Virus record (IMG/VR): IMGVR_UViG_3300020392_000008
Span: 41,023 to 105,022 of that record
Length of the DNA: 64,000 nt
Reading direction: 5' to 3' (one strand)
Source: a virus
A program made the position numbers and the translations under genes. The notes beneath the pieces were generated by a model. That model was not told where the DNA came from. It worked only from the letters and a program-made list of their open reading frames with translations, and did not search any database. This document shows positions 23,336-60,244 of this stretch, one piece after another. The stretch's first letter is position 1, and every line of letters begins with the position of its first letter.

Positions 23336-23638
23336 ATGAAGCAAATAATTTTATCTGAAAAAAACGAAACCTTAGGAAATTTCTTAGTACAAAATAAAGA
23401 TGTTGTTTATTCGGCCCTTCTAGATTCAATAGAAAAACATTACTTAGATTTAAATAAAAATAACGTAGACGTTTTAAAAATACGGGCTAGGGATAAAACA
23501 ACACATATAACGTTGCTCAGAAAAGATTGGGCAAGAGGTCTTAAAAAGGCTATTAAATATTTTGAAAAACCAAACATTGAACAATATGAAAAATGTAAAC
23601 GCTGTCTAGATATAATAAATTTTCTTGAAAAAAAATAA
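23336..23638 (+). CDS. Hypothetical protein
   Basis: 100-aa ORF with C-terminal EQYEKC (UVR-like) motif. Confidence 0.7.
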   Translation: MKQIILSEKNETLGNFLVQNKDVVYSALLDSIEKHYLDLNKNNVDVLKIRARDKTTHITLLRKDWARGLKKAIKYFEKPNIEQYEKCKRCLDIINFLEKK

Positions 23639-23663
23639 ACAAAACCTTATACTAGAATATAAT
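23637..23663 (+). promoter_or_regulatory. AAAC-N16-ATATAAT promoter upstream of the ECF sigma gene
   Basis: Variant of the repeated motif, 23 nt before the ATG. Confidence 0.55.
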
Positions 23664-23686
23664 AACAAAAAAATAAAAAAAAAATT

Positions 23687-24352
23687 ATGCCTGCATTTGA
23701 TGAACTAAATAAAAAAATCAATAATAGAATTCAAGAAATATCAATAAAAATACATAAGAAAAAATACACTAAAAAAGAATATGAAGAAATAGCAGAACTA
23801 GTATATCCAAAATTAAAATATCATATTTGGAAGTTTTGTAAAAACGATTTAGACACCGAAGAAGCCCTTCACTTTACCCTAGTTAAAATATTTAATAATA
23901 TAGAAAAATATAACCCAGAATCAGGTAGATTTACTACTTGGGCATTTACAATAGCTAGAAATGAAACTTTGTATTATTTAGATAGAAAATATAAAGATAT
24001 TCCTAAATACATAGAAATATCTGCTTTATATGAAGATAGTAAATATAATGATCAGCTTTCTGCGGATCAAATTTCTAGTAATCATAATGAAGTAACTGAA
24101 ATATTTAATAAAACTATTAATGAAATATTTAATTTAGAAGACGAACTTTTAAAAAACATAGCCATTGATAAAATGGTAAATAATACTAAAGTTAAAGAGA
24201 TAGCAAAAAAATATAACATGCCTGAAAATACAGTCAAAACAAAACTTAGAAAAGCCAGGTTTGAAATACGAAAATCTGTTATCAGGAAAGACCCAGATGT
24301 AAATAAAAAATTATCAGACTCGTTACCTGATTTTAAAATAAAACAAAAATGA
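23687..24352 (+). CDS. ECF-type RNA polymerase sigma factor
   Basis: Region 2 (DTEEALHFTLVKIF...FTTWAFTIARNE) and region 4 HTH (KEIAKKYNMPENTVKTKLRKAR). Confidence 0.9.
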   Translation: MPAFDELNKKINNRIQEISIKIHKKKYTKKEYEEIAELVYPKLKYHIWKFCKNDLDTEEALHFTLVKIFNNIEKYNPESGRFTTWAFTIARNETLYYLDRKYKDIPKYIEISALYEDSKYNDQLSADQISSNHNEVTEIFNKTINEIFNLEDELLKNIAIDKMVNNTKVKEIAKKYNMPENTVKTKLRKARFEIRKSVIRKDPDVNKKLSDSLPDFKIKQK

Positions 24353-24867
24353 AAAAAATACTTAATTATTTTAATCCTTTTAATATCATACTTAGGTTTT
24401 ACCTCATGACAAAGGAGTTAATATTTTTTATTTCCTATGTACGAGGTGTTAGAAAAATTGAATTAGAATTAGAAAGTAGAAATATATTTAAATATTCATG
24501 GTTTTCATACGTAAAGGCGGTTAATTTAAAAGCAGAAACATTATCCTTAATGAATAAACCAGAGGCTGAATTAGATAAAGATGAAAAAAAGGAACTGGAA
24601 AAATTAGAACTAAGTTTCGTAAGTAGAGAAATATCAAAGTATAATGATATCTTTTTAAAAAACAGTTTAATAGAGCTTATAAAAACTAAAGCAGAAAGGG
24701 TTAAAAATTCAGATTTTTATGGATACATGGTTATAATATCCTTTAATTGGAAAGAGGCTTCTCTTTATAACTTCTTAAGAACTCTACTTCACTTTTTTAT
24801 ATTACTAGTGTTTTTTACCATATTACCCTATGATGCTATTTATAATTATATTACCTCTTTTTTCTAA
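24349..24867 (+). CDS. Hypothetical protein with C-terminal TM segment
   Basis: ATGA overlap with the sigma gene; hydrophobic C-terminus. Confidence 0.7.
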   Translation: MKKILNYFNPFNIILRFYLMTKELIFFISYVRGVRKIELELESRNIFKYSWFSYVKAVNLKAETLSLMNKPEAELDKDEKKELEKLELSFVSREISKYNDIFLKNSLIELIKTKAERVKNSDFYGYMVIISFNWKEASLYNFLRTLLHFFILLVFFTILPYDAIYNYITSFF

Positions 24868-24891
24868 TAAATAAAAAAAAATATTAAATAT

Positions 24892-27417: not shown

Positions 27418-27444
27418 AAACTTTATCTACCATCTTTGTATAAT
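27418..27444 (+). promoter_or_regulatory. AAAC-N16-GTATAAT promoter
   Basis: Intergenic, upstream of the gp26-like gene. Confidence 0.65.
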
Positions 27445-27479
27445 ATCTTTATAGATAATAAAAAAATCAAATTATACAT

Positions 27480-28463
27480 ATGGATAATAAAGATGATCTA
27501 GCTAAAGAAGCCCTAGGTGAACTTGAAGCCAGTAGTCAATTAGAATACGATAAATCTGAAAAAGAAAAACCAAAAAAAGTAACCAGCTTAGGAAAAGCTT
27601 CAATATCTTCCACCGTTGATACAATGGCAAATGAATCAGGTTGGAAATTAGTAGCTTTAAATAATCTTCCTTCTCAAGGTTTTTTCTATGATAGAAATAT
27701 TGAAATACTAATAAAGTCTGCTAAAACTAAAGAAATAAGACATTGGTCTACTATAGATGAACACGACCCTATAGATGTTTCTGATAAAATAGCATTTGTA
27801 ACAGATTCATGTAGTAAGTTAAATATAAAGGGAGAAATAAAAAATTTAAATTCTAATGATATATTAGAAATTGACAAATATCAAACTTTATTTAAAATAC
27901 ATAGATTGACTTTTCCAAATAATGAAAATGTTTTAAAGGCAAATATTAAATGTTCAAATACCAAATGTGGACATGTTAATTCTATACCGGTAAGTGATAC
28001 TAATTTACAAGGATTTCAAATTCCAGAAGAAATGATAGAATTTTACTCAGAAGAAGAAAGATGCTTTATTATAAATTCTGAAAAATTAGGAGAAACTATA
28101 AAATTGTACATGCCAACTATAGGATCAACTAAGCTTATTAATGAATATAAAAAATTATGTAAAAGAAGAGGGTATAATGAAGATAAATCAATAGATAATA
28201 TTTTGCCTTATCTTATACCTAGTTGGAAAAACACTGAAGTTTCTGAATTGTTTAGTATTAGAAACCAGAGTAATAACTGGTCTCAAAATAAATTTATTTT
28301 TTTACACAAAGCTACTGAACTATTATCTCTTAATTCCAAAAATAAAGTACTTGGAATTTGTGAAAAATGCAGTAATAAAATGGCCTCTTCTATTTTTTTG
28401 GGAGGAAGCTTCACAGCAAAAGATATTTTCATTGTTTCAACTAGACTTAGAGACCTTGTTTGA
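27480..28463 (+). CDS. Baseplate hub assembly protein (T4 gp26-like)
   Basis: LPSQGFFY, two CxxC-type pairs (CSNTKC, CEKC), IKLYMPT. Confidence 0.7.
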   Translation: MDNKDDLAKEALGELEASSQLEYDKSEKEKPKKVTSLGKASISSTVDTMANESGWKLVALNNLPSQGFFYDRNIEILIKSAKTKEIRHWSTIDEHDPIDVSDKIAFVTDSCSKLNIKGEIKNLNSNDILEIDKYQTLFKIHRLTFPNNENVLKANIKCSNTKCGHVNSIPVSDTNLQGFQIPEEMIEFYSEEERCFIINSEKLGETIKLYMPTIGSTKLINEYKKLCKRRGYNEDKSIDNILPYLIPSWKNTEVSELFSIRNQSNNWSQNKFIFLHKATELLSLNSKNKVLGICEKCSNKMASSIFLGGSFTAKDIFIVSTRLRDLV

Positions 28464-35470: not shown

Positions 35471-35662
35471 ATGATTTATATTTCAATTTATATATTATTA
35501 GGTATTATAGTTACTTTTTTAACAGAGCTTTACGTTGAGCGCGTTAAGTATCTAGTCCCAGAAGAAGACAGGTTTGAATTTGATGGAATAACTAGAGCGA
35601 TTAACATATTTCTGTGGCCTATATTTTTACATAGAATAATTAAGTCTTACTTCTTTAATTAA
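35471..35662 (+). CDS. Small membrane protein
   Basis: Two hydrophobic segments; IFLWPIF. Confidence 0.7.
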   Translation: MIYISIYILLGIIVTFLTELYVERVKYLVPEEDRFEFDGITRAINIFLWPIFLHRIIKSYFFN

Positions 35663-35734
35663 ACTTATCATATATTTTTTAGTATAATATTATTATAATA
35701 ATCTTTAAACTATTGTTATGTTACATAGTATAAT
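35661..35734 (+). promoter_or_regulatory. Two tandem AAAC-N17-GTATAAT promoters upstream of the AGT operon
   Basis: Copies at 35661-35688 and 35707-35734. Confidence 0.65.
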
Positions 35735-35844
35735 AAAATGGATCGACCTAAATTTAGGTTGGATATTTATAAATGGCAGAAAAAGGGATCGATGGAATAG
35801 GACGTTACAAAATAAATATCCAGAAGAATTTAAACTTGATAATT

Positions 35845-35997
35845 ATGAATAAAAATAAAGAAGCTGTATTATTATCTAAATTAATATTAGGTATAGCTTT
35901 TATTGTAACTGCGATAATTTTTCCTCCAATTATTTTAATTACCATAATTTTATGGGCCGGATGGATTGTTTTTAATAATTATATGGATACTAGATGA
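35845..35997 (+). CDS. Small membrane protein
   Basis: Hydrophobic hairpin; start placed at the internal Met MNKNK (the ORF track starts at 35773). Confidence 0.55.
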   Translation: MNKNKEAVLLSKLILGIAFIVTAIIFPPIILITIILWAGWIVFNNYMDTR

Positions 35998-36281
35998 AAA
36001 AGAAAATAAAAAAATCTATATGTGAAGAAGCTCATGATATAGTCAATAATAGAGACGAAGAAAAAGAAAGAATGTATGGACCTTTTAGCGAAGGAATGGA
36101 TAGAGCAGCAAGTATTTTTAATGGAATGTCAGGTTTAAACATAACGGGTAAAGAAATGTTTATGGCAATGATAGCATTAAAGTTTTCAAGAGAATCTTAT
36201 AATCATAAAAAAGATAATTTACTAGACGCAGTTGCATATATACAAGGTTTAGAAAACTACATGAATGAAAACAAAAAATAA
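35994..36281 (+). CDS. DUF6378-like (MazG/dNTP diphosphohydrolase-type fold) nucleotide-modification-associated protein
   Basis: EEAHDIVN...YGPF...MIALKFSRE...DNLLDAVAY pattern. Confidence 0.7.
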   Translation: MKKKIKKSICEEAHDIVNNRDEEKERMYGPFSEGMDRAASIFNGMSGLNITGKEMFMAMIALKFSRESYNHKKDNLLDAVAYIQGLENYMNENKK

Positions 36282-36465
36282 ACATAAATATAAAATAGCA
36301 ATTTCATATATAAATTCATCTGAAGACGAAATACAAATGGAATTAATAGACCTTATAACTAACAATATAGAATTTTCCATGGAACAATACGCGAGAAATA
36401 GAAATCCTTTTAAATGGAAAATAATAAGAAAAATAGACATTGATAAAAACAAAAAAAATGATTAA
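36265..36465 (+). CDS. Hypothetical protein
   Basis: 66-aa ORF; IEFSMEQYARNR. Confidence 0.65.
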   Translation: MKTKNKHKYKIAISYINSSEDEIQMELIDLITNNIEFSMEQYARNRNPFKWKIIRKIDIDKNKKND

Positions 36466-36934
36466 ATTAGAAGAATTCTTTAATGATGAAAGTAAGTTAA
36501 ATCTTTTAAATTCTAACGAATTAAAAAAAATTAAAAACCCAGATAATATACAATATCTTATAGCAAACTATTTAATGGAAGATGGCGATGTTTTAAATGT
36601 TAAAAATCGTAGAGAAAATGAATTTTTTATACAACAGGAATTTATAGTAACTCAACCCGATGGTAAATGGTTTAAATACCCTTTCTTATTAAGAAAGAAT
36701 AAAGGTACGCCTGTCAAACAGGAATTAATGTATTTAAATCATTTAAGAAAAATATCTTTTGTAAAACATGTAATGTCTGGAAAAACACCTGATTCTTTTT
36801 CAATGTATGATGTTTTTACCAATAAACCATTTAATATAAATGAAGTAAATAAAGAATTTAGTAAAGAAGAAATAGTAGATATTGCTAAAGAAGCAGATTT
36901 TGAAAACTTAAAATATACGTTAAATAATAATTAA
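36440..36934 (+). CDS. Hypothetical protein
   Basis: ORF within an operon; start may be 36458. Confidence 0.65.
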   Translation: MIKTKKMIKLEEFFNDESKLNLLNSNELKKIKNPDNIQYLIANYLMEDGDVLNVKNRRENEFFIQQEFIVTQPDGKWFKYPFLLRKNKGTPVKQELMYLNHLRKISFVKHVMSGKTPDSFSMYDVFTNKPFNINEVNKEFSKEEIVDIAKEADFENLKYTLNNN

Positions 36935-36936
36935 AT

Positions 36937-38364
36937 ATGAAAAAAATAGCTATAATACTTGGAAGAGGAGTAGAAGGTTGTGGAGTAACTCGATGCGCAG
37001 TCGAATTTCAAAAAGCAACCCCTAATACAAAAATATTTGCAACAATAGATAAAAAATGGGCCCGTAGAGACACCATGGTTTTTGACAAAGATGAGTTTAC
37101 TTGCGCAAATTCAGAGGAAATGAATAAAGTGCTAACAGAAGTTAATAAAAATTTCGATATGGCTCTTATATATTCTGTTCCTTCTAAAAAACATCCTGAA
37201 GATTGTCAAACTAATTTTGTTAAACTTGTTAAAGGAATAAATTTACCCAAAGCGATTATTCAACTAGACCATAAAATGCAGTCTTTAAGTAGAAATGGAA
37301 AGTTTGATGAAATATGCAGTAATGTAGATGTTTTAATGACTCATTCTTTAGAATCTGATTTTACAAGATGGGCAAAAAGAGAAAACGTAAATACTCCTTT
37401 CAAAAAAATGGCATTGGGTTTTACATATGATGATCATAGAGAAAAATACTGGCTGCCAATAAGTGAGCAAGATCATAAAACAGTTAGATGGATTGGTAGG
37501 CTATCTGGCTGGAAAGGACCTAATTTAATGATGGACTTTCATGCTCAACATTTAATGAAAGAAGGCTACATAACAATACTTGAAGGACTAGAGGCAAGTA
37601 TAGGTTGGGCAGGCATATTGTATGAAAAAGGAGATAATAAAAATGGAAAACCTTTTTATAAAGATAATGAAATAGTAAATTATTTTAGACCTAGAAAAGA
37701 ATTAAACGAGGTAAAATTTACAGAAGATTTGCATGGAAAAGAAATTCATGGAGCTGGAGCGTACTTATATCCTCCTTATACAAATGTAGACTGCATGGAA
37801 CGTATGGCAAAAAGTGCTTTTGGGTCTGATTTATACCATTTGAAAGCTCATATGTATGGTAACAATATTGAAAATTGCCATGCTGAAGTAATTGCATCTG
37901 GAACTATCCCTATTTTTCATAAACATTTTTGCGATAATGTAATACATAGAGTTACTGGAAACCCTGTAAGTGAAGATAGTCATAGTGGAACAATAGGACT
38001 TGATAAAACTAATTTTAATAAATGTTCAAATCTTATGGTTAAATTATCTAATGATCCTGTGATGAGAGATGAAATGAGAGAAATGTCATTTGAATATTGG
38101 AAAAAGCATTCAAACGCAGAAATATGTACACATGAAATCATTAAAAATCTAGAAGATATAGTATCAGAAAAAGGTTTTATAGGTGCACAGGAATCCTCTA
38201 ATGTACCTAATGATAATAACCAATTAAGTATATTTGATTCAATAGAAAGTACACCAAAAGTATCTAATGCTATTATAGAAGAAAATTTACAAAAAAATTC
38301 TAATGATGTTACTAATGAAACTGTAGATTATGATTCATTATTAAATGACTTAAAAAACTTATAA
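36937..38364 (+). CDS. agt: DNA alpha-glucosyltransferase (T4 AGT-like)
   Basis: N-terminal IILGRGVEGCGVT matches T4 AGT (MARGLEGCGVT); IIQLDH, RWIGR..WKG, EVIASGTIPIF. Confidence 0.85.
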   Translation: MKKIAIILGRGVEGCGVTRCAVEFQKATPNTKIFATIDKKWARRDTMVFDKDEFTCANSEEMNKVLTEVNKNFDMALIYSVPSKKHPEDCQTNFVKLVKGINLPKAIIQLDHKMQSLSRNGKFDEICSNVDVLMTHSLESDFTRWAKRENVNTPFKKMALGFTYDDHREKYWLPISEQDHKTVRWIGRLSGWKGPNLMMDFHAQHLMKEGYITILEGLEASIGWAGILYEKGDNKNGKPFYKDNEIVNYFRPRKELNEVKFTEDLHGKEIHGAGAYLYPPYTNVDCMERMAKSAFGSDLYHLKAHMYGNNIENCHAEVIASGTIPIFHKHFCDNVIHRVTGNPVSEDSHSGTIGLDKTNFNKCSNLMVKLSNDPVMRDEMREMSFEYWKKHSNAEICTHEIIKNLEDIVSEKGFIGAQESSNVPNDNNQLSIFDSIESTPKVSNAIIEENLQKNSNDVTNETVDYDSLLNDLKNL

Positions 38365-38367
38365 AAC

Positions 38368-38712
38368 ATGCCAAATATATCAGGTAAATTAAAAGTTAAA
38401 TACGATGAAGTACAATTAACTGAAAAATTCAAAAAAAGAGAATTCGTAATTCAATTACCAACAACCGGTTATAATGGATCAAATGAATACGTGAAATTTT
38501 CTTTAATAATGGATAATTGTTCAATGATAGATTCTTTTTCAGAAGGAGAGTCCATTATAGTATCCTATGAAGTAAAAGCTAGAGAATGGGTAAATCCAGA
38601 AAATGAAACAGTTTATATTAATGATGTAAAGGCATTATCAATTAAATACAATACTGAAGAAGCTCCTGTTGAAATAGACATGTCAGGGAGCGGAGACGAC
38701 TTGCCTTTTTAA
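38368..38712 (+). CDS. DUF3127-family OB-fold/SSB-like protein
   Basis: FKKREFVI, VKFSL, V.YEVKAREW and an acidic DDLPF tail. Confidence 0.8.
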   Translation: MPNISGKLKVKYDEVQLTEKFKKREFVIQLPTTGYNGSNEYVKFSLIMDNCSMIDSFSEGESIIVSYEVKAREWVNPENETVYINDVKALSIKYNTEEAPVEIDMSGSGDDLPF

Positions 38713-47014: not shown

Positions 47015-47081
47015 AGTTCTTTAAAAGGCTATTTTTTTTTATTTATTTGTCGTATATATAAAATAAAATACATTTCATTAC

Positions 47082-48215: not shown

Positions 48216-48223
48216 AAATAAAA

Positions 48224-49849: not shown

Positions 49850-49856
49850 TTTATTA

Positions 49857-49883
49857 AAACTATACACAGTAGCTAGGTATAAT
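49857..49883 (+). promoter_or_regulatory. AAAC-N16-GTATAAT promoter
   Basis: Intergenic, upstream of the 49901 gene. Confidence 0.65.
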
Positions 49884-49900
49884 AAAATAAAAGTTTAATT

Positions 49901-50410: not shown

Positions 50411-50468
50411 TAATTTTTTGTTTTTTGTTAAATAAAGCAGATATATAAATAAAATAAACATTAGTAAA

Positions 50469-50825
50469 ATGAAAAGAAAAATTGCTAACTTTAATTCTTT
50501 CATGAAGAATAAATTAAATGAAATGGAAGAAATGGATAACGAATTCGCAATGAGCATGGATGCTTATTCAGAAGCGCCTGAAGAAGATATGGAAGATAAC
50601 ATGGAAGAAGATCCAGATCTAGACATGGACGAAGAAGGAGATGAAGAAGAGGAAGAGCTTACTATGGAAGACCTTAAAGCTATCGTTGACGACCTTGAAG
50701 AAAGACTATCTGCATTAGAAGGCGGAGAAGAAGAAGAGGAAGAAGGCGAAGAGGAAGAAGAAGAAGGTGAAGAAGAGGAAGGCGAAGGCGAAGAAGAGGA
50801 AGAAGAAGCAGACGAAGAAATTTAA
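50469..50825 (+). CDS. Extremely acidic poly-Glu protein with N-terminal tag (prohead-core gp67-like)
   Basis: IANFNSFMKNKLNE followed by a Glu/Asp-rich body; TATAAATA upstream. Confidence 0.7.
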   Translation: MKRKIANFNSFMKNKLNEMEEMDNEFAMSMDAYSEAPEEDMEDNMEEDPDLDMDEEGDEEEEELTMEDLKAIVDDLEERLSALEGGEEEEEEGEEEEEEGEEEEGEGEEEEEEADEEI

Positions 50826-50857
50826 TTATAGCTAAGTTTTTATACAAAAAAATTAAA

Positions 50858-50902
50858 GGCACAGATAGCTAATCAATTATTTTTAATTAGCTGTTTGTGC
50901 TT
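50858..50902 (+). terminator. Imperfect hairpin, possible terminator
   Basis: GCACAGATAGCTAAT...ATTAGCTGTTTGTGC followed by TTATTT. Confidence 0.5.
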
Positions 50903-50916
50903 ATTTAGCTTTATAA

Positions 50917-51336
50917 ATGGACTCTAATAAAATAACATCAATTCCCTTATTTGAAAACTATTGTAAACAATCTACAATAGATAATAAGATTATTGACTGT
51001 AATATTGGAGAAAATTCTATTAAATTAAAAGTAGCCTCTACTCCTAAATCTCATTCTATCGGGTATCAAAATGTAAAAGAAGAACCTTCTGATAAAGAAG
51101 GAATATTATTTGTATACCCTAGCGAATGCCTTTCATCTTTCTGGATGAAAAATGTAAATTTCCCATTAGACATACTCTTCTTTAATTCAAATAAAGAACT
51201 AGTAGGCAATCAAACTATGCCTAATAATAGTTACCCAAAAACTTTTAAATGTAATAAACCCTTTCAATATGCAGTTGAAACAAAAGCAGGTTGGTTTGAC
51301 AGGAATGGAAATAAAGACATAAAATTATCAATATGA
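50917..51336 (+). CDS. DUF192 family protein
   Basis: VASTP, GILFVY, FWMKNVNFPLDILF, YAVETKAG. Confidence 0.85.
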   Translation: MDSNKITSIPLFENYCKQSTIDNKIIDCNIGENSIKLKVASTPKSHSIGYQNVKEEPSDKEGILFVYPSECLSSFWMKNVNFPLDILFFNSNKELVGNQTMPNNSYPKTFKCNKPFQYAVETKAGWFDRNGNKDIKLSI

Positions 51337-51512
51337 AAACATCATATAATAGAAAAGACTTAGATTGTAAAATATGCGGCGAAACTGTAAATAACGTAGG
51401 ACTTGAAGCAACTGCGGTCACCTGTTGGAAATGTGTTAATGAACAGCTAAAAGGAATGCCTATTTTTATATCAGACTCTTGTGAAAATGAAGAAAATGAA
51501 AACGAGGAATAA
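51333..51512 (+). CDS. Small Zn-finger-like protein, 59 aa (missed by the ORF track)
   Basis: MKTSYNRKDLDCKICGE...VTCWKCV...; ATGA overlap with the DUF192 gene. Confidence 0.7.
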   Translation: MKTSYNRKDLDCKICGETVNNVGLEATAVTCWKCVNEQLKGMPIFISDSCENEENENEE

Positions 51513-51978
51513 ATACGTATCACTGTATAATTCATTCAAGTATAATGATTATTATGAAGTATTACTTGAAGAATATTCTAATCAATCTAAATATAAAACA
51601 TTTAAAAGCTTTGTAGTAAATAAAGCAAAGAGGGTAAAGGATATATCTAAAAATGTTATAAACGCCTTTAAAAAGGAAGGAACAGAAACAACTGACATGC
51701 TAAGTGTTTTTAACAGACAGCTTCGTAAAAAATTAAATTTAAAAACTAGAAAAGATGTTCCTACAAAAGAAGAATTAGATGAAGCATTAAATCAATTAAA
51801 AGACATACCCAAACTTCTTCCATATGCAATCGTAATGTTAGCAACTCCCATACCTGGTTCCTCAACAATGTATACCGTCTTTGCTTATTTTCTAAAGAAA
51901 AGATCTAATGGTAAAATAAACCTGTTGCCAGATTCTTTTGATGACATATTATCAACTAAAGTAGATAACAAAGACTAG
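51496..51978 (+). CDS. Hypothetical protein with hydrophobic PIPG hairpin
   Basis: ALNQLKDIPK...PIPGS; start placed at MKTRNK (the ORF track starts at GTG 51481). Confidence 0.65.
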   Translation: MKTRNKYVSLYNSFKYNDYYEVLLEEYSNQSKYKTFKSFVVNKAKRVKDISKNVINAFKKEGTETTDMLSVFNRQLRKKLNLKTRKDVPTKEELDEALNQLKDIPKLLPYAIVMLATPIPGSSTMYTVFAYFLKKRSNGKINLLPDSFDDILSTKVDNKD

Positions 51979-51989
51979 TTTTTTGCACA

Positions 51990-52021
51990 TATGTCATATC
52001 TTAAATAAAATAAATGACATA
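51990..52021. promoter_or_regulatory. 8-bp inverted repeat upstream of the sigma54 promoter
   Basis: TATGTCAT-N16-ATGACATA. Confidence 0.55.
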
Positions 52022-52039
52022 ATTTCCAATTTAATTTAA

Positions 52040-52055
52040 TGGCACATTTTTTGCA
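52040..52055 (+). promoter_or_regulatory. Sigma54 (-24/-12) promoter of hsp20
   Basis: TGGCAC-ATTTT-TTGCA with exact consensus spacing, ending 26 nt before the ATG. Confidence 0.75.
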
Positions 52056-52081
52056 GAGTATACATTAAAAACAATAAACAA

Positions 52082-52441
52082 ATGAGACAAACAAATCTTT
52101 TAAAAAATTTCTTTTCAATAGCAGATGAGGCTTTTTATAATAATAAAATACCTTCTTTTTTCTATGAAACTACTAAACTTGAAAATTCAATAGAAGTAGA
52201 AATGATTCTTCCAGGGTATACTAGAGATGAATTAAATATTACATCGGATAGTGAAGATTTATTAATAGAAACTAATGAAAAATTTAAAGAAAATAAATGG
52301 AAAATACCATTGAAAAGAGCATTTAAATTATCTGATAATCTAGATAGTAAAAATATTAACGCAAAACTTGAAAACGGAATATTAACAATTAGTATTCCAA
52401 ATAAAGCAAAGGCTAAAAAAAGAAACATTAGTATAGATTAA
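52082..52441 (+). CDS. Small heat shock protein Hsp20
   Basis: LPGY...L.I, RAFKL, INAKLENGILTISIP. Confidence 0.9.
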   Translation: MRQTNLLKNFFSIADEAFYNNKIPSFFYETTKLENSIEVEMILPGYTRDELNITSDSEDLLIETNEKFKENKWKIPLKRAFKLSDNLDSKNINAKLENGILTISIPNKAKAKKRNISID

Positions 52442-52466
52442 TATTAAAATTTAATTATTTTAAACT

Positions 52467-52493
52467 AAGGGAATTTTACAATTCCCTTTTTTT
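52467..52493 (+). terminator. Intrinsic terminator after hsp20
   Basis: AAGGGAATT-TTAC-AATTCCCTT followed by a T-run. Confidence 0.8.
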
Positions 52494-52508
52494 ATTTAGT
52501 TTATTTTA

Positions 52509-52535
52509 AAACCGTCTATTAAATTCCGGTATAAT
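52509..52535 (+). promoter_or_regulatory. AAAC-N16-GTATAAT promoter
   Basis: After the terminator and upstream of ugd. Confidence 0.65.
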
Positions 52536-52562
52536 AAAATATATTACAAAATCTTAATTTAA

Positions 52563-53528
52563 ATGAAGTTAGAAAATAAAAATATTGGAATAGTAGGTCA
52601 GGGATTTGTAGGAACGGCCGTTAAAGAAAAATTAAAAGAATCTAAAACAATTTACGCATATGATTTAGATGATTCTAAATGTGGAATATTTAGTACAAAA
52701 GATGAATATAAACCTACTGATATTCCACTATTAGTGGATAATTGTGATATAATATTTGTGTGCGTACCTACTCCTATGTATGCTACTGGAAAATGCAACA
52801 CTGGTATAGTAGAAAATGTTCTTACTGAAATAAATAATTCCACATACACTAGTAATAATTTTTCAAAAAACACAATTGTTATAATTAAATCAACAATACC
52901 ACCAGGTACAACTGAATCCTTTAATAAAAAATATAAAAACATAGGTATTGTTTTTAGTCCTGAATTTTTAACAGAAGCTAATTCAATTGAAGATTTTAAA
53001 AATCAAAATAGAATAATTTTAGGTATAGATTGGGCAGAACATATTAAACCTGTAACAAAGGTTTTTAAAGATGCTTTTCCAGATGCAGAAATAGCTGTGT
53101 TAAATACAGCTGAAGCTGAACTTACTAAATATATGACAAATTTATTTTTAGCAACAAAAGTAAGTTTTTTTAATGACATGTATAAATTAACAGAGTCCAT
53201 TAATAACTCAGAAAATTTAGCTGTTTCTCAAAAAATAAAATTTGACTCTGTTGTAGACGCTACACTGTTAGATCCAAGAATAGGAAAATCTCATACATTA
53301 GTACCAGGTCCCGATGGAGATTTTGGCTATGGAGGTCATTGTTTCCCTAAAGACATGGCAGCTATTTTAAGTTTAGCAGATCAATTAGGCGCATCGTTGC
53401 CTACTTTATTTGGTGCAAGCACTACTAATTCTATAGTTAGAACAGATAGAGACTGGGAAAAAATGGAAGGGAGAGCAGTTTCTAATGATGAAAAAACTTT
53501 TGAACACGTTTTTCCACATGAGCTTTAA
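52563..53528 (+). CDS. ugd: UDP-glucose/GDP-mannose dehydrogenase family protein
   Basis: GIVGQGFVG, FVCVPTP, IKSTIPPGTT, FSPEFL, AELTKY..N, GYGGHCFPKD. Confidence 0.9.
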   Translation: MKLENKNIGIVGQGFVGTAVKEKLKESKTIYAYDLDDSKCGIFSTKDEYKPTDIPLLVDNCDIIFVCVPTPMYATGKCNTGIVENVLTEINNSTYTSNNFSKNTIVIIKSTIPPGTTESFNKKYKNIGIVFSPEFLTEANSIEDFKNQNRIILGIDWAEHIKPVTKVFKDAFPDAEIAVLNTAEAELTKYMTNLFLATKVSFFNDMYKLTESINNSENLAVSQKIKFDSVVDATLLDPRIGKSHTLVPGPDGDFGYGGHCFPKDMAAILSLADQLGASLPTLFGASTTNSIVRTDRDWEKMEGRAVSNDEKTFEHVFPHEL

Positions 53529-53820
53529 TAAAAAACACATACCGGCAAAGAAAAACTTTTTAAAAAAAGAGTATTTAAAAATAGGTCATGATAAATTCAT
53601 AAAAAAATATCGTAAATATGACGCTTTTATAGTAGGAAATTATACAAATTCATTTTTTATAAACTGGGTCATATATGAAAATAAAAAGTACGTATTTATT
53701 GTGTATGAATTATGTCAATTTTTATATAGAATAAAAGAATTAGGATTAAAAGGAATAATAAGTAATTTAAATTATAAATTAAAAAAAAGAATAAAATATG
53801 TATTGGGTAGCAAAAGTTAA
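53518..53820 (+). CDS. Hypothetical protein
   Basis: ORF filling the gap; start placed at MSFNKK. Confidence 0.5.
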   Translation: MSFNKKHIPAKKNFLKKEYLKIGHDKFIKKYRKYDAFIVGNYTNSFFINWVIYENKKYVFIVYELCQFLYRIKELGLKGIISNLNYKLKKRIKYVLGSKS

Positions 53821-53998
53821 ATTTGAATCTATAAACGACAATAACGGTAAAATACAAACCACCAAAGAAGAATATTTAGTTTCAGCTGAATCCGTTACTG
53901 AAGTTGAAGAAAAATTAAATACTAAATTTGGAGAAGGAATGTCAGAATTTTCAGTGTCAGGAGTCGCCGAATCTAAAATAATGGGAATAGTAGAATAA
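53798..53998 (+). CDS. DUF4494-like protein
   Basis: EEYLVSAESVTEVE...VAESKIM. Confidence 0.7.
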   Translation: MYWVAKVKFESINDNNGKIQTTKEEYLVSAESVTEVEEKLNTKFGEGMSEFSVSGVAESKIMGIVE

Positions 53999-54300
53999 TG
54001 CAAGAATTAATATACCACGACGATATAAATAAACAAGAGGTTGATTTAAATAATCAAGAAAACTTGGCAGACAACGAATTTATTTCAAAAAGAGTTTCTG
54101 AAATACGAAACAGTATACAGGAACTATTTAAAGAATTAGACGAGGTGGTATCTATGTGTAATCATAAAGATGGACATGACGTAAAGCTTATAGCAAATAG
54201 TAAACTAGATTCAGGAGGTTTAAGGAGAGTTTGTAAAATATGTAAAACACCCATTGGATATGCTAGTAAAAAAGAAGCAGATGAGTGGCAAAAAGACTAA
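53998..54300 (+). CDS. Hypothetical protein with CxH...CxxC motif
   Basis: MCNH...VCKIC. Confidence 0.7.
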   Translation: MQELIYHDDINKQEVDLNNQENLADNEFISKRVSEIRNSIQELFKELDEVVSMCNHKDGHDVKLIANSKLDSGGLRRVCKICKTPIGYASKKEADEWQKD

Positions 54301-54607
54301 TCAAAAAATAAAGTCAAGTAAATCTGAAGCCATATACGATGTTTTTATAAAAACTTTAAATTGCTCTTCTAATTATTATGAAAAGGAAGCTTTTGTATAT
54401 CATCATTCAGTAGTTTCCCACGATATAAAAAAGTATAGGCTTAAATCAAATGAAAAATGTAATAGCGTTAGTTGGAGTTTTACTATAAGCGCCTGTGAAA
54501 TGGTACAATTTAAATGCAAAGATGGTACCCCAATGAATGTCTTTTTAGAGTCTATTGCTTTACAAAATAAAGTAAATTCTCTAGTAAATTACATATTAAA
54601 AAATTAA
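54281..54607 (+). CDS. Hypothetical protein
   Basis: ORF within an operon; start uncertain. Confidence 0.55.
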   Translation: MSGKKTNQKIKSSKSEAIYDVFIKTLNCSSNYYEKEAFVYHHSVVSHDIKKYRLKSNEKCNSVSWSFTISACEMVQFKCKDGTPMNVFLESIALQNKVNSLVNYILKN

Positions 54608-54608
54608 A

Positions 54609-55040
54609 ATGCAGGTATTAAAGGTTCCATTAGTAAAAGACTCATTATTTGAAAGAGAGCTAAAAAAATATCTCTTATATAGAATGGACTTATTATTTAA
54701 AGAATACAACAATAATATACCTGACACTATTTCATGTAAAGGTCACTTAGGGAAGCATGTATTTAATATTATAACTAGTAATAATTGGAAATTTGGTTCA
54801 ACTAAAATAGTTCACGAGAAGGGTCCTAATGCAATAGAGATAAGGTTCGACAATGGTATAAGCATAGAAAAAAATTCTAAATTATCAATGGGCACCGGTT
54901 CAACTATGGATGGTAGAGTAATTGAAGGATTTATAGATTCTAAAAGCCAGGCTTCTATTATACAATCTTCCATAGATAATAATTTTACTATAGAAAAAAT
55001 TGTTAACCCCAAGGTTATTATAAAGTTAGAAAAACTATGA
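54609..55040 (+). CDS. Hypothetical protein
   Basis: 143-aa ORF within an operon. Confidence 0.65.
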   Translation: MQVLKVPLVKDSLFERELKKYLLYRMDLLFKEYNNNIPDTISCKGHLGKHVFNIITSNNWKFGSTKIVHEKGPNAIEIRFDNGISIEKNSKLSMGTGSTMDGRVIEGFIDSKSQASIIQSSIDNNFTIEKIVNPKVIIKLEKL

Positions 55041-55742
55041 AATATCCTTAACTACATAGGCTGTTACTTTGCCTACTCCTTTTAGTTTACTCAATGGTTC
55101 ACAGGTATGCAATTGAAGTTCAGATAACATTCTTCCAGATCTTTTTCTTTTTCCAGAATAACATTTATGTCTATAGTCTATAATTTCCATTTTATATTTA
55201 CTATCGTTTAAATACTTTACTATTTTTTCTTCTTGTAATTTATCTAAACTTTCTGTAAAACTAAAAGCCATTTCACCAGATTCAGATACAGTTGATTCCA
55301 TTCTAGATGCAGTGTTTACCGTATTTCCAAAATAATCCCATAATTTTTTATTTTGAATATTTACTTTCTTTTTATATAAAGGACCCCATGATATTCCCAT
55401 TCTAATAGTTAAAGGTTTTCCTTTTATCTTAATGGGTTTTTTATAAAGATTTTTTTGTATTTCTATGCCCGCTAAAATGGCTTTATATAATGAATCTTTT
55501 CCATCCCAGCCTAACATATAGCTATCGCCTATTGTTTTTATAATATCTCCACCGTGCTTTGGAACTATTGTTTCCATTCTTTTTTCATGTTCTTTAAGAG
55601 CGTCAAACATTCCATCTTTATGTAAGTTCCAAAGTTTAGAACTACCCTTGACGTCTGTGAATAAAATAGCTTGATCTTTTTCTTCTAGTTTATCTAAATC
55701 GGATACGCTTTCAAACAATTTAAAAGATGTTATCATGTTCAT
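55035..55742 (-). CDS. Class III adenylyl cyclase, stand-alone, with N-terminal tag
   Basis: AILFTDVKGS, IIKTIGDSYM, IRMGISWGP, WDYFGNTVNTASRME, LKGVG. Confidence 0.9.
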   Translation of the reverse strand: MNMITSFKLFESVSDLDKLEEKDQAILFTDVKGSSKLWNLHKDGMFDALKEHEKRMETIVPKHGGDIIKTIGDSYMLGWDGKDSLYKAILAGIEIQKNLYKKPIKIKGKPLTIRMGISWGPLYKKKVNIQNKKLWDYFGNTVNTASRMESTVSESGEMAFSFTESLDKLQEEKIVKYLNDSKYKMEIIDYRHKCYSGKRKRSGRMLSELQLHTCEPLSKLKGVGKVTAYVVKDIS

Positions 55743-55822
55743 TATTTTTATTTTATTTATCTTAAATTAATATATTATTTTAAATGAATTACGCGTATAA
55801 ATAATAAAAAAGGTTTTTATAA

Positions 55823-57094
55823 ATGAAAAATTATCTTAAAGACTTTAATAGTTTTAGCATAAATGAAATGGCAAGTACTCTTTCTAAGTTAGGATTGCCT
55901 AAAAAACTAATTAGAGTAATACATAGCCTACCTGATACTATAGAAAAAATTAGCCCTTTTGCATATGCAACAGCTAGACAAAGAGGAGCAGAACTTCCTC
56001 CTATAGGCGGAAATAGACCTAGTCATGAAGTAGAAATAATAGAACATTTTAGAATGAGAAAAACTCAATTGCTAGGTAATCAATATGGAACGTATCCAGC
56101 TAAACAACCAGGTTGGCTTGCAGAAAAACCATGGGGAGATCATAGTATTCTTCTAGCTGTCCCTGAGCCAGGTGGAAAATACGCAGGAGAAGATCCTAGA
56201 TATGACTACATTTATAATAAAGAAAGTGCATTTGACGATAGAGGAGCTGGAAGAGGAAAAAAATATAGAGTTATTACCATGGGAAAAGATGGTAAAATAC
56301 TTAGAGACTGGGCTGCTTTTCAAGGCAAAATAACATATCCTGCAAATCCAGAAACTGGAGAAAGAATGTATAGAAATGATTTTAAAGATTATCCAACCGC
56401 AGCAGATGGTAAAATAGACGTTTACGTATTAGATACTGAAACAGTTGGAACCGAAAGAGAAAAAAGACAATTAGGACCCGGTAAAGGATTTGATTGGCAC
56501 GATGTTCCAATTGGAAAAGCAAGGGCTAAAAAAAGAGAACGTGTAAAATCTAGACAAGTAACAGCTTACACTTTTATAGATGATTTTGCTGAAAGATTTG
56601 AAAAAATTCTTTCTTCTATTTTTGGTAAAAGAAAAAAGCAAGCTGCTGAAAAATATGCAAGTTTAATATTACAAGATGATGCAGATCCAACAGAATTAGC
56701 CAATCTATCTAAAGTTATACATGAAGAACCTAATGTAATGGATAATATTATTAAATATTATGAAAAATTCTTGAAATATCTTAAATTGAATGGAGACTAT
56801 GGACATGCTTCACAAAAAGAACTTCATGATGCAATGTATGTTAGAAACATGGAAGAACTCGCTTCAATAGAAGACATTGTAAAAGTTCATGGAAAAATGA
56901 AAGCACTTAAAAATTTCGCAGAGTTTATATTAACAGGTGATGTAAATGACATTAATAAAGAAATGGAAAAAGCAATTGAAGAACCTGGAGCTCAAATGAG
57001 AGACGATTTTGAAGACATGTTAGATTTTGATTTTGACATGGACAACCCCGCTCCATATAACCCTAACGAGGAAGATGACGAAATAGACATATGA
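55823..57094 (+). CDS. Hypothetical protein with N-terminal tag
   Basis: MKNYLKDFNSFSINE; TATAAATA upstream; acidic tail. Confidence 0.75.
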   Translation: MKNYLKDFNSFSINEMASTLSKLGLPKKLIRVIHSLPDTIEKISPFAYATARQRGAELPPIGGNRPSHEVEIIEHFRMRKTQLLGNQYGTYPAKQPGWLAEKPWGDHSILLAVPEPGGKYAGEDPRYDYIYNKESAFDDRGAGRGKKYRVITMGKDGKILRDWAAFQGKITYPANPETGERMYRNDFKDYPTAADGKIDVYVLDTETVGTEREKRQLGPGKGFDWHDVPIGKARAKKRERVKSRQVTAYTFIDDFAERFEKILSSIFGKRKKQAAEKYASLILQDDADPTELANLSKVIHEEPNVMDNIIKYYEKFLKYLKLNGDYGHASQKELHDAMYVRNMEELASIEDIVKVHGKMKALKNFAEFILTGDVNDINKEMEKAIEEPGAQMRDDFEDMLDFDFDMDNPAPYNPNEEDDEIDI

Positions 57095-57468
57095 AACATA
57101 TAAAACTCTTTGAAAATAAAGAAAACAATATATTAAAACCATTGTTTGAACTTAAAAGAGTTGGTGTAGAGGCAACTGCTCTTGGAAAAATGAAAGATGG
57201 TGCTAATCTTATTTCTAATTATTTGGAAAATAACAAAAATGAAATAAGAAATGCTCTTGATTTCTATACTTCATGGACAATGAGTCAACATGGCGGATTT
57301 ACAAGACAAATAAGTGTTACAGATTTATTATATCCCTTCTTTATAAAATACAGTAAAGAAATAGAAGAGGGATTATTTAGCAAAGAATACGCTAAAGATT
57401 CTGATTTAGACATACCATCAGATGCAGAAGATATGTTAAGTTCAGATGATTTTGAATTAGATATTTAA
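57091..57468 (+). CDS. Hypothetical protein with N-terminal tag
   Basis: MKHIKLFEN; acidic tail ending DDFELDI. Confidence 0.75.
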   Translation: MKHIKLFENKENNILKPLFELKRVGVEATALGKMKDGANLISNYLENNKNEIRNALDFYTSWTMSQHGGFTRQISVTDLLYPFFIKYSKEIEEGLFSKEYAKDSDLDIPSDAEDMLSSDDFELDI

Positions 57469-58064
57469 TTACAATCTTTACAATTAGAGTTAGAATTAGA
57501 ACTAGATTTACCTTTATTTCCTGTAGCGTATTTTACACCCATTATTGTACCTATTATACTAAATGCATTTGTTAATAGTATACCAAACATGTTGCTCCAC
57601 GTGTTTCCTATTAGCTGTGTTTCTTTATCATAATATATAGAAAACATATAAAGGATTGTTGTAAATAAACCTACTCCTATTATAATAGCCAGTGCTATTT
57701 TTACTATGACAGTTACTAGTTCAAATTGTGTCTTTTTTTGAAGAATGTCTAAGTCTTTTAATGCATTTTGTTTAGAATGCTCGGCTGTTTTTAGAGCGTT
57801 TTCTAATTTAGAATTTGCTTTTTCTACACTTTGCGTTGCGCTTTTTAATTGCTTATTTTGAGCTTGAACTTGCTTAGTTATGTCTAAACGTTTTCTTTGT
57901 TTTTCTTTTTGTAAATTAGTTGCTTTTTTTACATACTCTTCTAAGTTTTTATCATTTTCAGAATCTATCAATTTTAAAACATTACCTTCTATGTATATGC
58001 TTTTTTCTTTTCCTACTTGTAAAAGCTTTTCCTTGGTTTCTTTACAAAAAGTTATTTTCATCAT
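57465..58064 (-). CDS. Coiled-coil, two-TM membrane protein of the two-component operon
   Basis: ATGA overlap with the receiver gene; two hydrophobic helices. Confidence 0.75.
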   Translation of the reverse strand: MMKITFCKETKEKLLQVGKEKSIYIEGNVLKLIDSENDKNLEEYVKKATNLQKEKQRKRLDITKQVQAQNKQLKSATQSVEKANSKLENALKTAEHSKQNALKDLDILQKKTQFELVTVIVKIALAIIIGVGLFTTILYMFSIYYDKETQLIGNTWSNMFGILLTNAFSIIGTIMGVKYATGNKGKSSSNSNSNCKDCN

Positions 58065-58498
58065 TTGTATATCTTAAAAGAATTTGTTCTATCTACGTAA
58101 CCCGGATAGTCTTTAAGAAAATCTTCTAATCTAGGCTCTATTTCGTCAGATTTAATTATCCAAAATTGAGCACCTGCGCTTATTGCTCTTGCCTGTTCTT
58201 CCTCCTCGTCGCTCGATGATATTATTCCTACGACTACATGATTTCCATAGTTAAAATTAATACGTCTAATTAATTCTATTCCATCGAAGGAGGAACCTAT
58301 CATATTTAAATCTACAAAAACGCATGACGGTTTTTCATGTTTCTCTATTCCATCAAACCATTTTTTAAACATTTTTTCTGCACCGTCTGCACTATTAATA
58401 GCCCTTAGGGATAGTGTTATATCTAATAAGCTACACGCGTCCTCAAACACTAAATGAAACAAATCTTCATCATCAACTAACATTATAGAATCAATCAT
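58061..58498 (-). CDS. Single-domain response regulator (receiver)
   Basis: LVDDE, VFVDLNM..DG, IISSS, WIIK. Confidence 0.9.
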   Translation of the reverse strand: MIDSIMLVDDEDLFHLVFEDACSLLDITLSLRAINSADGAEKMFKKWFDGIEKHEKPSCVFVDLNMIGSSFDGIELIRRINFNYGNHVVVGIISSSDEEEEQARAISAGAQFWIIKSDEIEPRLEDFLKDYPGYVDRTNSFKIYK

Positions 58499-58520
58499 AG
58501 TAATTTAAATATTATTATAT

Positions 58521-60182
58521 TTATTTATCTAAAGATATTTCTAGTTTAGTCCCTTTTCTACTTTTTAAAAGATTTAATTTCCATCCATGCTCTTTTATTA
58601 TCGCTATACATATGTTTAAACCGAGCCCGCTTCCAGATTCTTTATTATTGTGCTTTCGGGTATATGGCTTTGAATATTCTTCAAATTCTGTTTTACTCAT
58701 TCCTCTACCGTTATCTTCTACTACAATATTTCCTTTTTTTCTGTATATTTTAACTAATTTAGTATTGCTATCGTTATATTTTAAACCGTTTCTTATCAAA
58801 TTATCAATTGCTGTACAGAATAAAGACCCATTAACTATTTCTTCTCCTAATTCCGATAAAGATACGCTACTAGAATAGGCTGTGTTTTTTAAATAACTTT
58901 TTAATATACTGGTTAAATCTAGTTTTTGCACTTCCATTGTAGATTCCTTTTTAACTAAATTTGTAAATTCTTTAACTCCATTATATACTTTTTGAGAATG
59001 TGTAAGCCCTCCTTTTAATAATTTCATAGGCCCTTCAAACATTTTATTCAAGTCTTCTATATCTATATTATTTTCTTCAGAAAATTTAACAAGCCTTCTT
59101 TCGAATGAAGATATTCCTCTGGGAATATATGTATTTATTCCACTATGCATATCGTGTCTTAATATTTTAGAAGCATGTTCTAGATACGAATTTTTTCTTT
59201 CAAGTTCTATTTTTTGATTTATAGAATCACTTATATCGTTGGCTATTTTAAGTACTTTTACAACTTTACCTTTTGAATTTACTATAGGATTATATGTTCC
59301 GGCTATCCAAAAATGAGAACCATCTTTTTTTATTCTCATATATTCTCCATATTTAGAATTTCCATTTTTTATATCTTCCCAAAACGATTGATATTTTTCG
59401 TTTTCTTTCCATTGATCATCTTCCATAAATATTGTATGATGTTTACCCTGTATTTCATGAAGGGTTGGATACCCAGTCATTTCTAAAAACTTATTATTTG
59501 CGTTTATTACAAATCCATTTGTACAAAATTCAACAGTTGCGCTAGATTGATTTATGGCTAACATAATACCTGTCATTTCCTCTTCCTTGTTTTTAAGTTT
59601 TTCTAAAGAATCATATAGATCTGTTAAATCATGCCTAACTGACATAAAACCAATATGATTATTTTTTTCATCAAATTCAGCCATTATCCATGAATCAACT
59701 GTGTAATGCTTACCGTTTTTTTTACGATTTATAATTATTTCATTCCATATGGCTTTATGTTTCACGGTTGATGTGTACATTTTATTCCAAAAATTTAAAT
59801 CATGCTTTTTAGAACTTAACATAGAGTGATTTTTACCTAGTAACTCATGAGGCTTATATCCTGACGAATCGCAAAATATTTTATTTACATGTGTTATAAC
59901 ACCGTTTTTATCTGTTTTAGAAATTAAAGATGATTCGTTTAATATATTTTCAATAGTATTTCTTTTAATAGTTTCTATTCTTTGTCTCTTAATTATATCT
60001 TTAATTATTATCAACAATAAAGGCATTGATGATAATATACATACAAAACCTATTGATGAAACAGCATGGGTAGGTTTTATTAAGTCAAAAGCTAATAAAG
60101 TTTGAAGTATTGAAAATAATATCATTACTGTTATTAATAAAGTAATACTTACTTTAGATCTAAGTGTTAGGTTTTTAAACAT
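58521..60182 (-). CDS. Membrane sensor histidine kinase with two PAS domains
   Basis: Two TM segments; two PAS domains; H-box LRHDM, N-box DNLIRNGLKY, G1 EDNGRG, G2 GSGLGL. Confidence 0.9.
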   Translation of the reverse strand: MFKNLTLRSKVSITLLITVMILFSILQTLLAFDLIKPTHAVSSIGFVCILSSMPLLLIIIKDIIKRQRIETIKRNTIENILNESSLISKTDKNGVITHVNKIFCDSSGYKPHELLGKNHSMLSSKKHDLNFWNKMYTSTVKHKAIWNEIIINRKKNGKHYTVDSWIMAEFDEKNNHIGFMSVRHDLTDLYDSLEKLKNKEEEMTGIMLAINQSSATVEFCTNGFVINANNKFLEMTGYPTLHEIQGKHHTIFMEDDQWKENEKYQSFWEDIKNGNSKYGEYMRIKKDGSHFWIAGTYNPIVNSKGKVVKVLKIANDISDSINQKIELERKNSYLEHASKILRHDMHSGINTYIPRGISSFERRLVKFSEENNIDIEDLNKMFEGPMKLLKGGLTHSQKVYNGVKEFTNLVKKESTMEVQKLDLTSILKSYLKNTAYSSSVSLSELGEEIVNGSLFCTAIDNLIRNGLKYNDSNTKLVKIYRKKGNIVVEDNGRGMSKTEFEEYSKPYTRKHNNKESGSGLGLNICIAIIKEHGWKLNLLKSRKGTKLEISLDK

Positions 60183-60217
60183 TTTTTATAAAAATCTTAT
60201 TTTAATTATTTATATTA

Positions 60218-60244
60218 AAACCTATATTTTATATTTCGTATAAT
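60218..60244 (+). promoter_or_regulatory. AAAC-N16-GTATAAT promoter
   Basis: Upstream of the epimerase gene. Confidence 0.65.

Follow-up and report, generated by a model that had tools for sequence, protein, structure and literature searches.

The 64,000-nucleotide stretch of viral DNA analysed here (hereafter, the window) comprises bases 41023-105022 of the 105,022-bp virus record IMGVR_UViG_3300020392_000008, which we refer to at full length as G0. It holds intergenic copies of a bipartite element, AAAC-N16/17-GTATAAT, and, at 23687, a gene for a sigma factor of the extracytoplasmic function (ECF) type. A preliminary description of the window had proposed that the copies are promoters of a phage 'middle' regulon read by this sigma factor.

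The record has 29.8% G+C and an estimated completeness of 41% (CheckV). Judged by its gene content, it is a large T4-related myovirus: Pfam and PHROGs matches identify TerL, baseplate wedge, tail sheath stabiliser and neck genes among the structural markers, and the non-structural markers include ribonucleotide reductase, groEL/groES, clpP and a DNA alpha-glucosyltransferase. On the basis of the terminase, the nearest cultured relatives are phage PAU, the Tenacibaculum phages PTm1/PTm5 and the Flavobacterium phage MaF61, with the Lak megaphages also among the relatives. PAU, PTm1/PTm5 and MaF61 have Bacteroidota hosts, that of PAU having been re-identified as Sphingobacterium (PMC3738902, excerpt), and Prevotella is the host listed in the Lak records; the phage studied here probably infects Bacteroidota as well. 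Two sets of relatives recur below: G001, which has ~77% nucleotide identity and overlaps the right half of the record, and G006, G008 and G009, whose copy of the sigma factor is only ~50% identical.

A bipartite element recurs in intergenic DNA

Seven copies had been listed for the window, and all seven lie on the + strand where the preliminary description placed them (Table 1). The strict pattern AAAC-N16/17-GTATAAT occurs six times in the window, whereas 100 dinucleotide shuffles averaged 0.29 matches and never exceeded 2. Allowing either purine at the first position of the second box (RTATAAT) adds the site at 23637 and raises the count to seven; since the shuffles then average 1.14 matches and go up to 5, the added ATATAAT site, taken alone, is within chance. 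A motif scan of the whole record, a check that had been proposed at the outset, returned seven strict copies and none for the reversed-pattern control. With RTATAAT there are ten copies in the record. All ten are intergenic (intergenic DNA is 5.0% of the record), all ten point in the same direction as the next gene, and the end of the -10 box lies 17-84 nt from the downstream ATG. When only the intergenic DNA (46 segments, 5,954 nt, 77% A+T) was simulated with a first-order Markov model in 2,000 runs, the mean counts were 0.03 for the strict and 0.16 for the RTATAAT pattern, with a maximum of 2, as against 7 and 10 observed.

Table 1. Features of the window, with the copies of the element first and other features below them
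Feature	Position in window	Strand	Remarks
AAAC-N16-GTATAAT copy	27418..27444	+	35 nt 5' of ATG of gene 27480-28463
AAAC-N17-GTATAAT copy	35661..35688	+	upstream copy of tandem pair 5' of 35773 operon
AAAC-N17-GTATAAT copy	35707..35734	+	38 nt 5' of gene 35773
AAAC-N16-GTATAAT copy	49857..49883	+	17 nt 5' of gene 49901-50410
AAAC-N16-GTATAAT copy	52509..52535	+	27 nt 5' of ugd (52563-53528); retained in G001
AAAC-N16-GTATAAT copy	60218..60244	+	21 nt 5' of epimerase gene (60266-61183); in G001 with N17 spacer
AAAC-N16-ATATAAT copy, doubtful	23637..23663	+	between orf100 and sigma gene; AAAC overlaps orf100 stop codon
Conserved promoter of the sigma operon	about 23268..23300	+	TTTTTATAAAT-N15-GTATATT; A/T-rich -35 without C
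Operon of orf100, ECF-type sigma and orf172	23336..24867	+	orf100 (23336-23638), sigma (23687-24352), orf172 (24349-24867, overlapping the sigma stop codon)
Operon of small ORFs, DUF6378, DNA alpha-glucosyltransferase (36937-38364) and DUF3127 SSB-like gene	35773..38712	+	Pfam, PHROGs
Terminator-like hairpin and T-run	52467..52488	+	closes hsp20 unit just ahead of the 52509 promoter
Late box ATAAATAA, examples	18655, 33604, 38744, 50445, 55797		

The composition of the two boxes sets the family apart from several known promoter types. In comparison with canonical (group 1) sigma-70 promoters the -10 box matches TATAAT, but the -35 box is (A)AAAC(T/C) rather than TTGACA, which places the sites outside that class; a scan with a generic sigma-70 consensus showed no enrichment (117 matches where 114.6 were expected, and 100 where 107.1 were). 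The base before the G of GTATAAT varies among the strict sites (T, A, A, G, G, C, T). A search for bipartite pairs of 4-mers found no 'AAC..CGT' motif for an ECF sigma factor, and its top ECF-like pair was AAAC..GTAT, with 24 observed against 6 expected. AAAC stands at N16/17 in 7 of the 9 intergenic GTATAA[TC] sites of G0, which fits an ECF-type -35 box (AAC) with a spacer of ~14-17 bp. ECF promoters of B. subtilis have the form tgaAAC with CGTA or CGTC and 14-17 bp spacers (PMC5758882, excerpt), and the -35 box and spacer of the family fit this type. The TAnnTTTG box is read by flavobacterial sigmaA (PMC9723704, excerpt). The full Bacteroidota pattern, TTTG-N17-21-TAnnTTTG, has no intergenic copy in the record, and only 7 of 145 occurrences of TAnnTTTG are intergenic; the family is thus distinct from the Bacteroidota housekeeping promoter, as had been claimed for it. 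Our literature searches found no published description of the AAAC-N16/17-GTATAAT motif.

The boxes are conserved in related phages

Six sites can be paired with G001. The paired boxes agree in 65 of 66 positions and the paired spacers in 68 of 100, and three spacers differ by one base in length. At 27418 the boxes are preserved and the spacers altered in G001, in the loci L011, L018/L020/L021 and L014/L016, and in G004. The tandem pair fares unevenly: GAAC replaces AAAC in the G001 orthologue of the 35661 site, and the 35707 site is retained in G001 and has an exact copy upstream of the DUF6378 orthologue in G008. Upstream of the orthologues of gene 49901, AAAAC is retained in G001, G006, G008 and G009, with GTTTAAT and GTAGAAT as variants of the -10 box.

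Summed over 19 related records, exact copies number 39, against 4 in the reversed-pattern control; one of these, a 271-kb record rated complete by CheckV, has nine copies and a control count of 0. When one mismatch was allowed in the -10 box, 11 of 19 matches in G0 and 13 of 25 in G006 were intergenic and co-oriented with the next gene, compared with 2 of 40 in PTm1. Exact counts had suggested to us that the family is missing from the relatives at 50% identity, a reading we dropped once one-mismatch counts and orthologous genes showed persistence with weaker -10 boxes. AAAC-type promoters do persist at orthologous genes in the ~50%-diverged relatives: G006, for example, keeps them upstream of the S1-domain gene and of the ruvC-like/late-sigma operon, the latter as AAAC-N16-GTACAAT. 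Collectively, the counts, placement and conservation indicate that the AAAC-N16/17-GTATAAT sites are a genuine promoter family, conserved in related phages.

GTATAAT sites without AAAC exist as well, and in G006, G008 and G009 the -35 position of GTATAAT sites holds TTTAA(a/c); the strict pattern is therefore the core of a broader GTATAAT family, in which 15-17 nt separate a -35 box resembling (T)TTAAAAC from a -10 box GTATAA(T).

We also noted that Prevotella phage Lak-A1 (W03) has the motif with N17 spacing in 12 of 12 exact copies, and a homologue of the ECF sigma factor (E 1.7e-14).

The gene at 23687 encodes a SigW-like sigma factor with its own conserved operon promoter

The only Pfam domains in the 23687 protein are sigma regions 2 and 4_2. 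Its predicted structure (mean pLDDT 80.5) consists of two helical bundles and a disordered linker at residues 105-129 with pLDDT below 50. In a Foldseek search of the PDB the top 11 chains were all ECF sigma factors, SigW first, and SigW was also the best PDB match of the family profile (E 3.8e-8); the best specific NCBIfam families are likewise SigW, yet below their curated cut-offs (51 bits against 209). Profile matches and the predicted fold identify the protein as a true two-domain ECF sigma factor, closest to SigW. Its family has 423 members, many of them on contigs of 130-250 kb, and all 15 aligned members, down to 50% identity, share the DNA-recognition stretches GRFTTW..TIARNETL and ENTVKTKLRK without change. 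From the baseplate wedge gene through two small genes, TerL, orf100 and sigma to orf172, the gene order is kept in G006, G008 and G009, and orf172 is itself conserved in these three.

Autoregulation through the 23637 site, as first suggested, is not supported. The strict pattern is present at this position in 0 of 13 relatives, among which G004 has N14-ATATAAT and G005 N15-GTATAAT at other spacings, and orf100 lies so close to the sigma gene in G006, G008 and G009 that there is no room for a promoter. By contrast, each of the 26 rows compared (23 distinct records) has upstream of orf100 a box of T-run and A-run, followed after 15-17 nt by a GTAT(A/T/C)AT-type box, which is exact GTATAAT in 12 rows. 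The sigma operon would thus be driven from this conserved promoter and not from 23637. As it has the -10 box of the family but not the C of AAAC, the promoter may be autoregulatory or may be the point of action of an earlier sigma factor.

The downstream genes suggest a general middle class

Outside the window, three copies precede groEL, an S1-domain gene, and a ruvC-like gene followed by a gp55-like 'late sigma' gene (C1:24366-24779). Within it, Pfam and PHROGs confirmed the names that had been given to the 23687 sigma, the glucosyltransferase operon 35773-38712, ugd at 52563 and the epimerase at 60266. The label 'gp26-like' for gene 27480 was not confirmed; this gene matches phrog_36717 alone, a family of unknown function. 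A second box, TATAGATAATAAAAAA, lies directly upstream of gene 27480 (27445-27479) and is kept as TATATAAGATAAAAAA in G006, G008 and G009, all three of which lack the AAAC promoter there. This box may serve the gene as another promoter, of late-like type.

The idea that the regulon coordinates DNA glycosylation had to be abandoned. Sugar or glycosylation genes lie downstream of only 4 of the 10 sites, two of the four being the tandem pair, and the remainder of the family also precedes groEL, the S1-domain gene, the ruvC-like and late-sigma genes, 27480 and 49901. The regulon would be a general middle class (chaperone, RNA-binding, recombination and late-sigma genes and two genes of unknown function) and not a glycosylation regulon. 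If its sites are working promoters, this class would drive all of these units together with the glucosyltransferase operon, ugd and the epimerase gene.

The label 'middle' itself is apt, since the gp55-like late sigma belongs to an operon that stands behind one of the copies. A T4-like late tier can be recognized by the box ATAAATAA, of which the record has 47 copies, 25 of them intergenic; most of these 25 lie 14-26 nt upstream of a start codon, mainly of structural genes, and the copy at 38744 opens the unit after the glucosyltransferase operon. By analogy with T4, this box would belong to the gp55-like sigma factor. T4-type late promoters consist of a single TATAAATA-like box without a -35 element, and the AAAC family, with its fixed -35 box, is of a different kind. 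In a sigma cascade the family would therefore occupy an intermediate position, between an earlier tier and the ATAAATAA tier, a placement drawn from the genes it drives, which include the late-sigma operon.

Metatranscriptome data from four RNA runs of one study provided short contigs over parts of 44001-64000, with ugd left uncovered. Contigs from all four runs start at 50455-50488, just 3' of the late box at 50445-50452. As contigs cannot show RNA ends, these positions are a weak hint of a start site only.

In G001, about ten promoters of the form TATATTTAtaGTATAAC (L045-L046, about 57,000-68,300) precede small ORFs and a gene for a 239-aa sigma factor. This subgroup resembles the sigmaA-type promoters of PTm1, TATATTTG...GTCAAAC, and may be an early class read by the host.

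Which factor reads the sites

The sites would be read by host core RNA polymerase carrying a phage-encoded factor of the sigma-70 family rather than the host housekeeping sigma, and dependence on some phage sigma factor is probable. Its identity is a more tentative matter: the SigW-like ECF sigma factor at 23687 is the single most likely reader, with a chance we place slightly below even. Of the regulon as first proposed, the ECF-like -35 box and spacer and the ECF type of the sigma factor stand, as described above; the link between this sigma factor and these promoters is unproven, and PAU contradicts it. Co-occurrence gives a mixed picture. The motif is present in sigma-bearing records, weakly in G008 and G009, and absent from 4 of 5 complete genomes without the sigma factor, PAU being the exception; the complete genomes of PTm1, MA9V-1, MA9V-2 and MaF61, which have a gp1-like but no ECF sigma factor, hold 0, 0, 0 and 1 exact copies, respectively, which favours the link. 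Moreover, the region-4.2 helices of the RpoD-like sigma factors vary widely among motif-keeping records, and the helices of the ECF sigma factor are unchanged. GTATAAT shares GTA with the sigmaW -10 box CGTA, but the base before the G varies.

Several observations weigh against the ECF sigma factor as the reader. The complete genome of PAU contains 28 exact copies, all on the coding strand, with a control count of 0, and nine further copies with the same -35 box and GTAGTACTAT. Neither protein nor family-profile searches found an ECF sigma homologue in PAU; besides a gp55-like gene, its only sigma-like gene is the RpoD-like gp1. The -10 box is the canonical RpoD-type TATAAT with no C conserved before the G, and ECF -10 boxes are usually CGT or GTC. 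In the part of G001 that lies beyond the end of our record, about 25 intergenic GTATAAT/GTATAAC promoters lack AAAC; as an ECF sigma factor depends on the -35 box, these are not expected among its targets. Also beyond the end of our record, G001 encodes RpoD/RpoS-like sigma factors of 239 aa ('sigB') and 299 aa ('sigC'). These two, with the gp55-like factor of the record, mean that the 23687 protein can no longer be called 'the' phage sigma. Closer to the gene, the conserved promoter of the sigma operon is without the C of AAAC, and no anti-sigma domain was found in orf172 (no Pfam or NCBIfam match). In the diverged relatives the relaxed family is weakly enriched in G008 (5/23 intergenic) and G009 (4/16), where ~15% of the DNA is intergenic, and G009 has 0 exact copies despite having the ECF sigma factor.

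A less likely alternative is that an RpoD/RpoS-like phage sigma factor (PAU gp1; sigB or sigC of G001) reads the family, and that the ECF sigma factor has another target set. Region 2 of such a factor would read the TATAAT-type -10 box, the normal target of RpoD-type sigma factors, and contact with the AAAC -35 box would replace the extended -10 (TTTA-G) of the promoters without AAAC. In PAU, where the motif is found 28 (+9) times, gp1 is the only full sigma factor. The best NCBIfam families of gp1, sigB and sigC are RpoS, RpoD and SigA, sigC aligns over its full length to RpoD_Cterm, and the best BLASTP partner of gp1 is sigB (E 8e-10). The heptamer GTATAAT is identical in promoters with and without AAAC; PAU promoters have TGAAAC and also TAGTATAAT, and their -10 variants TATAAT and TACTAT retain A at position 2 and T at position 6. 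This alternative is at odds, however, with the recognition helices. The region-4.2 helices of the sigB homologues (VGVSRIV, VRVCQIV, SEVNRSL, ATISNIK and others) differ, and yet these records all keep exact copies (8, 5, 9 and 4 for the four named, controls 0-2); the sigC helix is likewise variable. The motif is missing from PTm1, MA9V-1 and MA9V-2, complete genomes with a gp1-like and without an ECF sigma factor. Of the 12 one-mismatch sites in G006, 6 depart from the heptamer at its final T, the base most needed by RpoD-type sigma factors.

In the first five genomes the region-4.2 helix of sigB and the motif had seemed to vary together ('SK..[IV]SR' in PAU and G001 versus others). This idea was dropped because ten more records pair different helices with exact copies, and because G008 keeps orthologous AAAC sites.

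It is improbable that a host factor reads the sites, be it a host alternative (ECF) sigma factor or host sigmaA redirected by a small phage co-factor such as T4 MotA/AsiA, with the phage sigma factors serving other promoters. A host factor would account for a motif common to PAU and the marine clade although their sets of phage sigma factors differ; the -35 box and its spacer are those of ECF promoters in general, and many ECF sigma factors are described in Bacteroidota (PMC13472631, excerpt). Yet the motif is not used by PTm1, MA9V-1/2 or MaF61, all of them related phages of Bacteroidota; PTm1 has instead 40 upstream copies of ATATTTG, a sigmaA type. In the ECF motif derived from mapped 5' ends in flavobacteria, moreover, the -10 box is CGT and not GTATAAT (PMC9723704, excerpt). 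That the sites are not promoters at all, but chance AT-rich matches or a signal of some other type, for instance sites bound by replication or packaging proteins, is very improbable: the metatranscriptome contigs have no usable 5' ends at the sites, but the intergenic and co-oriented placement of 10 of 10 copies far exceeds the simulated count, the boxes are conserved as the spacers drift and alter in length, and the bipartite geometry is that of sigma-70-family promoters.

With the ECF sigma factor kept as the leading candidate, a wider scheme can be drawn, which as a whole we regard as rather doubtful. Jumbo Bacteroidota phages may run an orthogonal promoter code that host sigmaA cannot read, with a TATAAT-type -10 box and an AAAC or TTTAAAA -35 box. 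A cascade of up to four phage sigma factors (two RpoD-like, one SigW-like ECF and one gp55-like) would read this code, an ECF tier at AAAC-N16/17-GTATAA would switch on the late sigma, and in PAU the cascade would have collapsed into a single sigma factor. Minimal and RpoD-like sigma factors are both already known in jumbo phages of the same group (PMC7824862, excerpt).

Other genes of the record

On the - strand at 55035-60182 of the window lie signalling genes, for a class III adenylate/guanylate cyclase domain protein, a receiver-domain protein and a PAS histidine kinase. Host-like genes of the window encode ribosomal protein S21 (46081-46260, -) and Hsp20 (52082-52441, +), and another, for an Hc1 histone-like protein, lies at C1:5706-5969 (-) of the record.

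Significance

Transcription by Bacteroidota phages is poorly understood owing to the unusual promoter code of the host polymerase. The family described here is compact and conserved, and it is found in uncultured marine phages and in the cultured PAU, with defined candidate sigma factors; the question of its reader is therefore directly testable. If the proposed assignments are true, the timing of gene expression could be mapped in a widespread group of marine phages of roughly 250 kb, orthogonal sigma/promoter pairs would become available as genetic tools for Bacteroidota, and there would be an example of an ECF sigma factor operating within a phage sigma cascade.

Comparison with known systems

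PAU shares the bipartite motif, as cTGAAAC-N16-GTAGTATAAT in its 28 exact copies, but differs in having no ECF sigma factor and an RpoD-like sigma, gp1. Its putative late boxes are TATACATA. Our literature searches found no paper describing PAU promoters. We noted that in many of them the -35 TGAAAC lies within the loop of a terminator-like hairpin (CCTCGGAAACTGAAACTTTCGAGG), for example at 35772-35810 and 91481-91519, so that terminator and promoter appear fused in one cassette. The gp1 gene (L063:94-1182) bears the GenBank name 'internal capsid vertex protein (mango) subunit 2'. Given this annotation as a virion protein, the sigma factor is possibly delivered with the DNA; if gp1 does ride in the virion, such delivery would start transcription.

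Among solved and curated proteins, SigW is the one nearest to the 23687 sigma factor. SigmaW promoters of B. subtilis (TGAAAC ... CGTA) use N16 spacing, and the family resembles them in a -35 box ending in AAAC, a spacer within 14-17 bp and a -10 box containing GTA. It differs in that GTATAAT has no conserved C before the G, the sigma factor is phage-encoded, and no RsiW-like anti-sigma was detected.

In phages 7-11 (gp47) and phiEco32 (gp36), a phage-encoded sigma factor of ECF size redirects the host core polymerase to a phage motif (PMC8948821, excerpt), a role that is putative here. The 7-11 motif is bipartite, GTAAtg-(16)-aCTA, and that of phiEco32, tAATGTAtA, contains GTAT (same excerpt). 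Those phages are enterobacterial podoviruses with one phage sigma and experimentally mapped promoters, whereas the lineage studied here has at least four sigma-like genes and promoters predicted from sequence.

In the cascades of T4 and SPO1, temporal classes are set by promoter type, and the late-sigma gene is under a promoter of the preceding class (PMC2988021 and PMC13401047, excerpts), as would be the case here. The middle promoters of T4 use host sigma-70 with MotA/AsiA and no separate full sigma factor, and SPO1 uses gp28 and gp33/34, unlike the phage-encoded ECF sigma factor that is our leading candidate. The likeness to T4 extends to the late tier, where a gp55-like sigma factor would be paired with a TATAAATA-like late box, here ATAAATAA.

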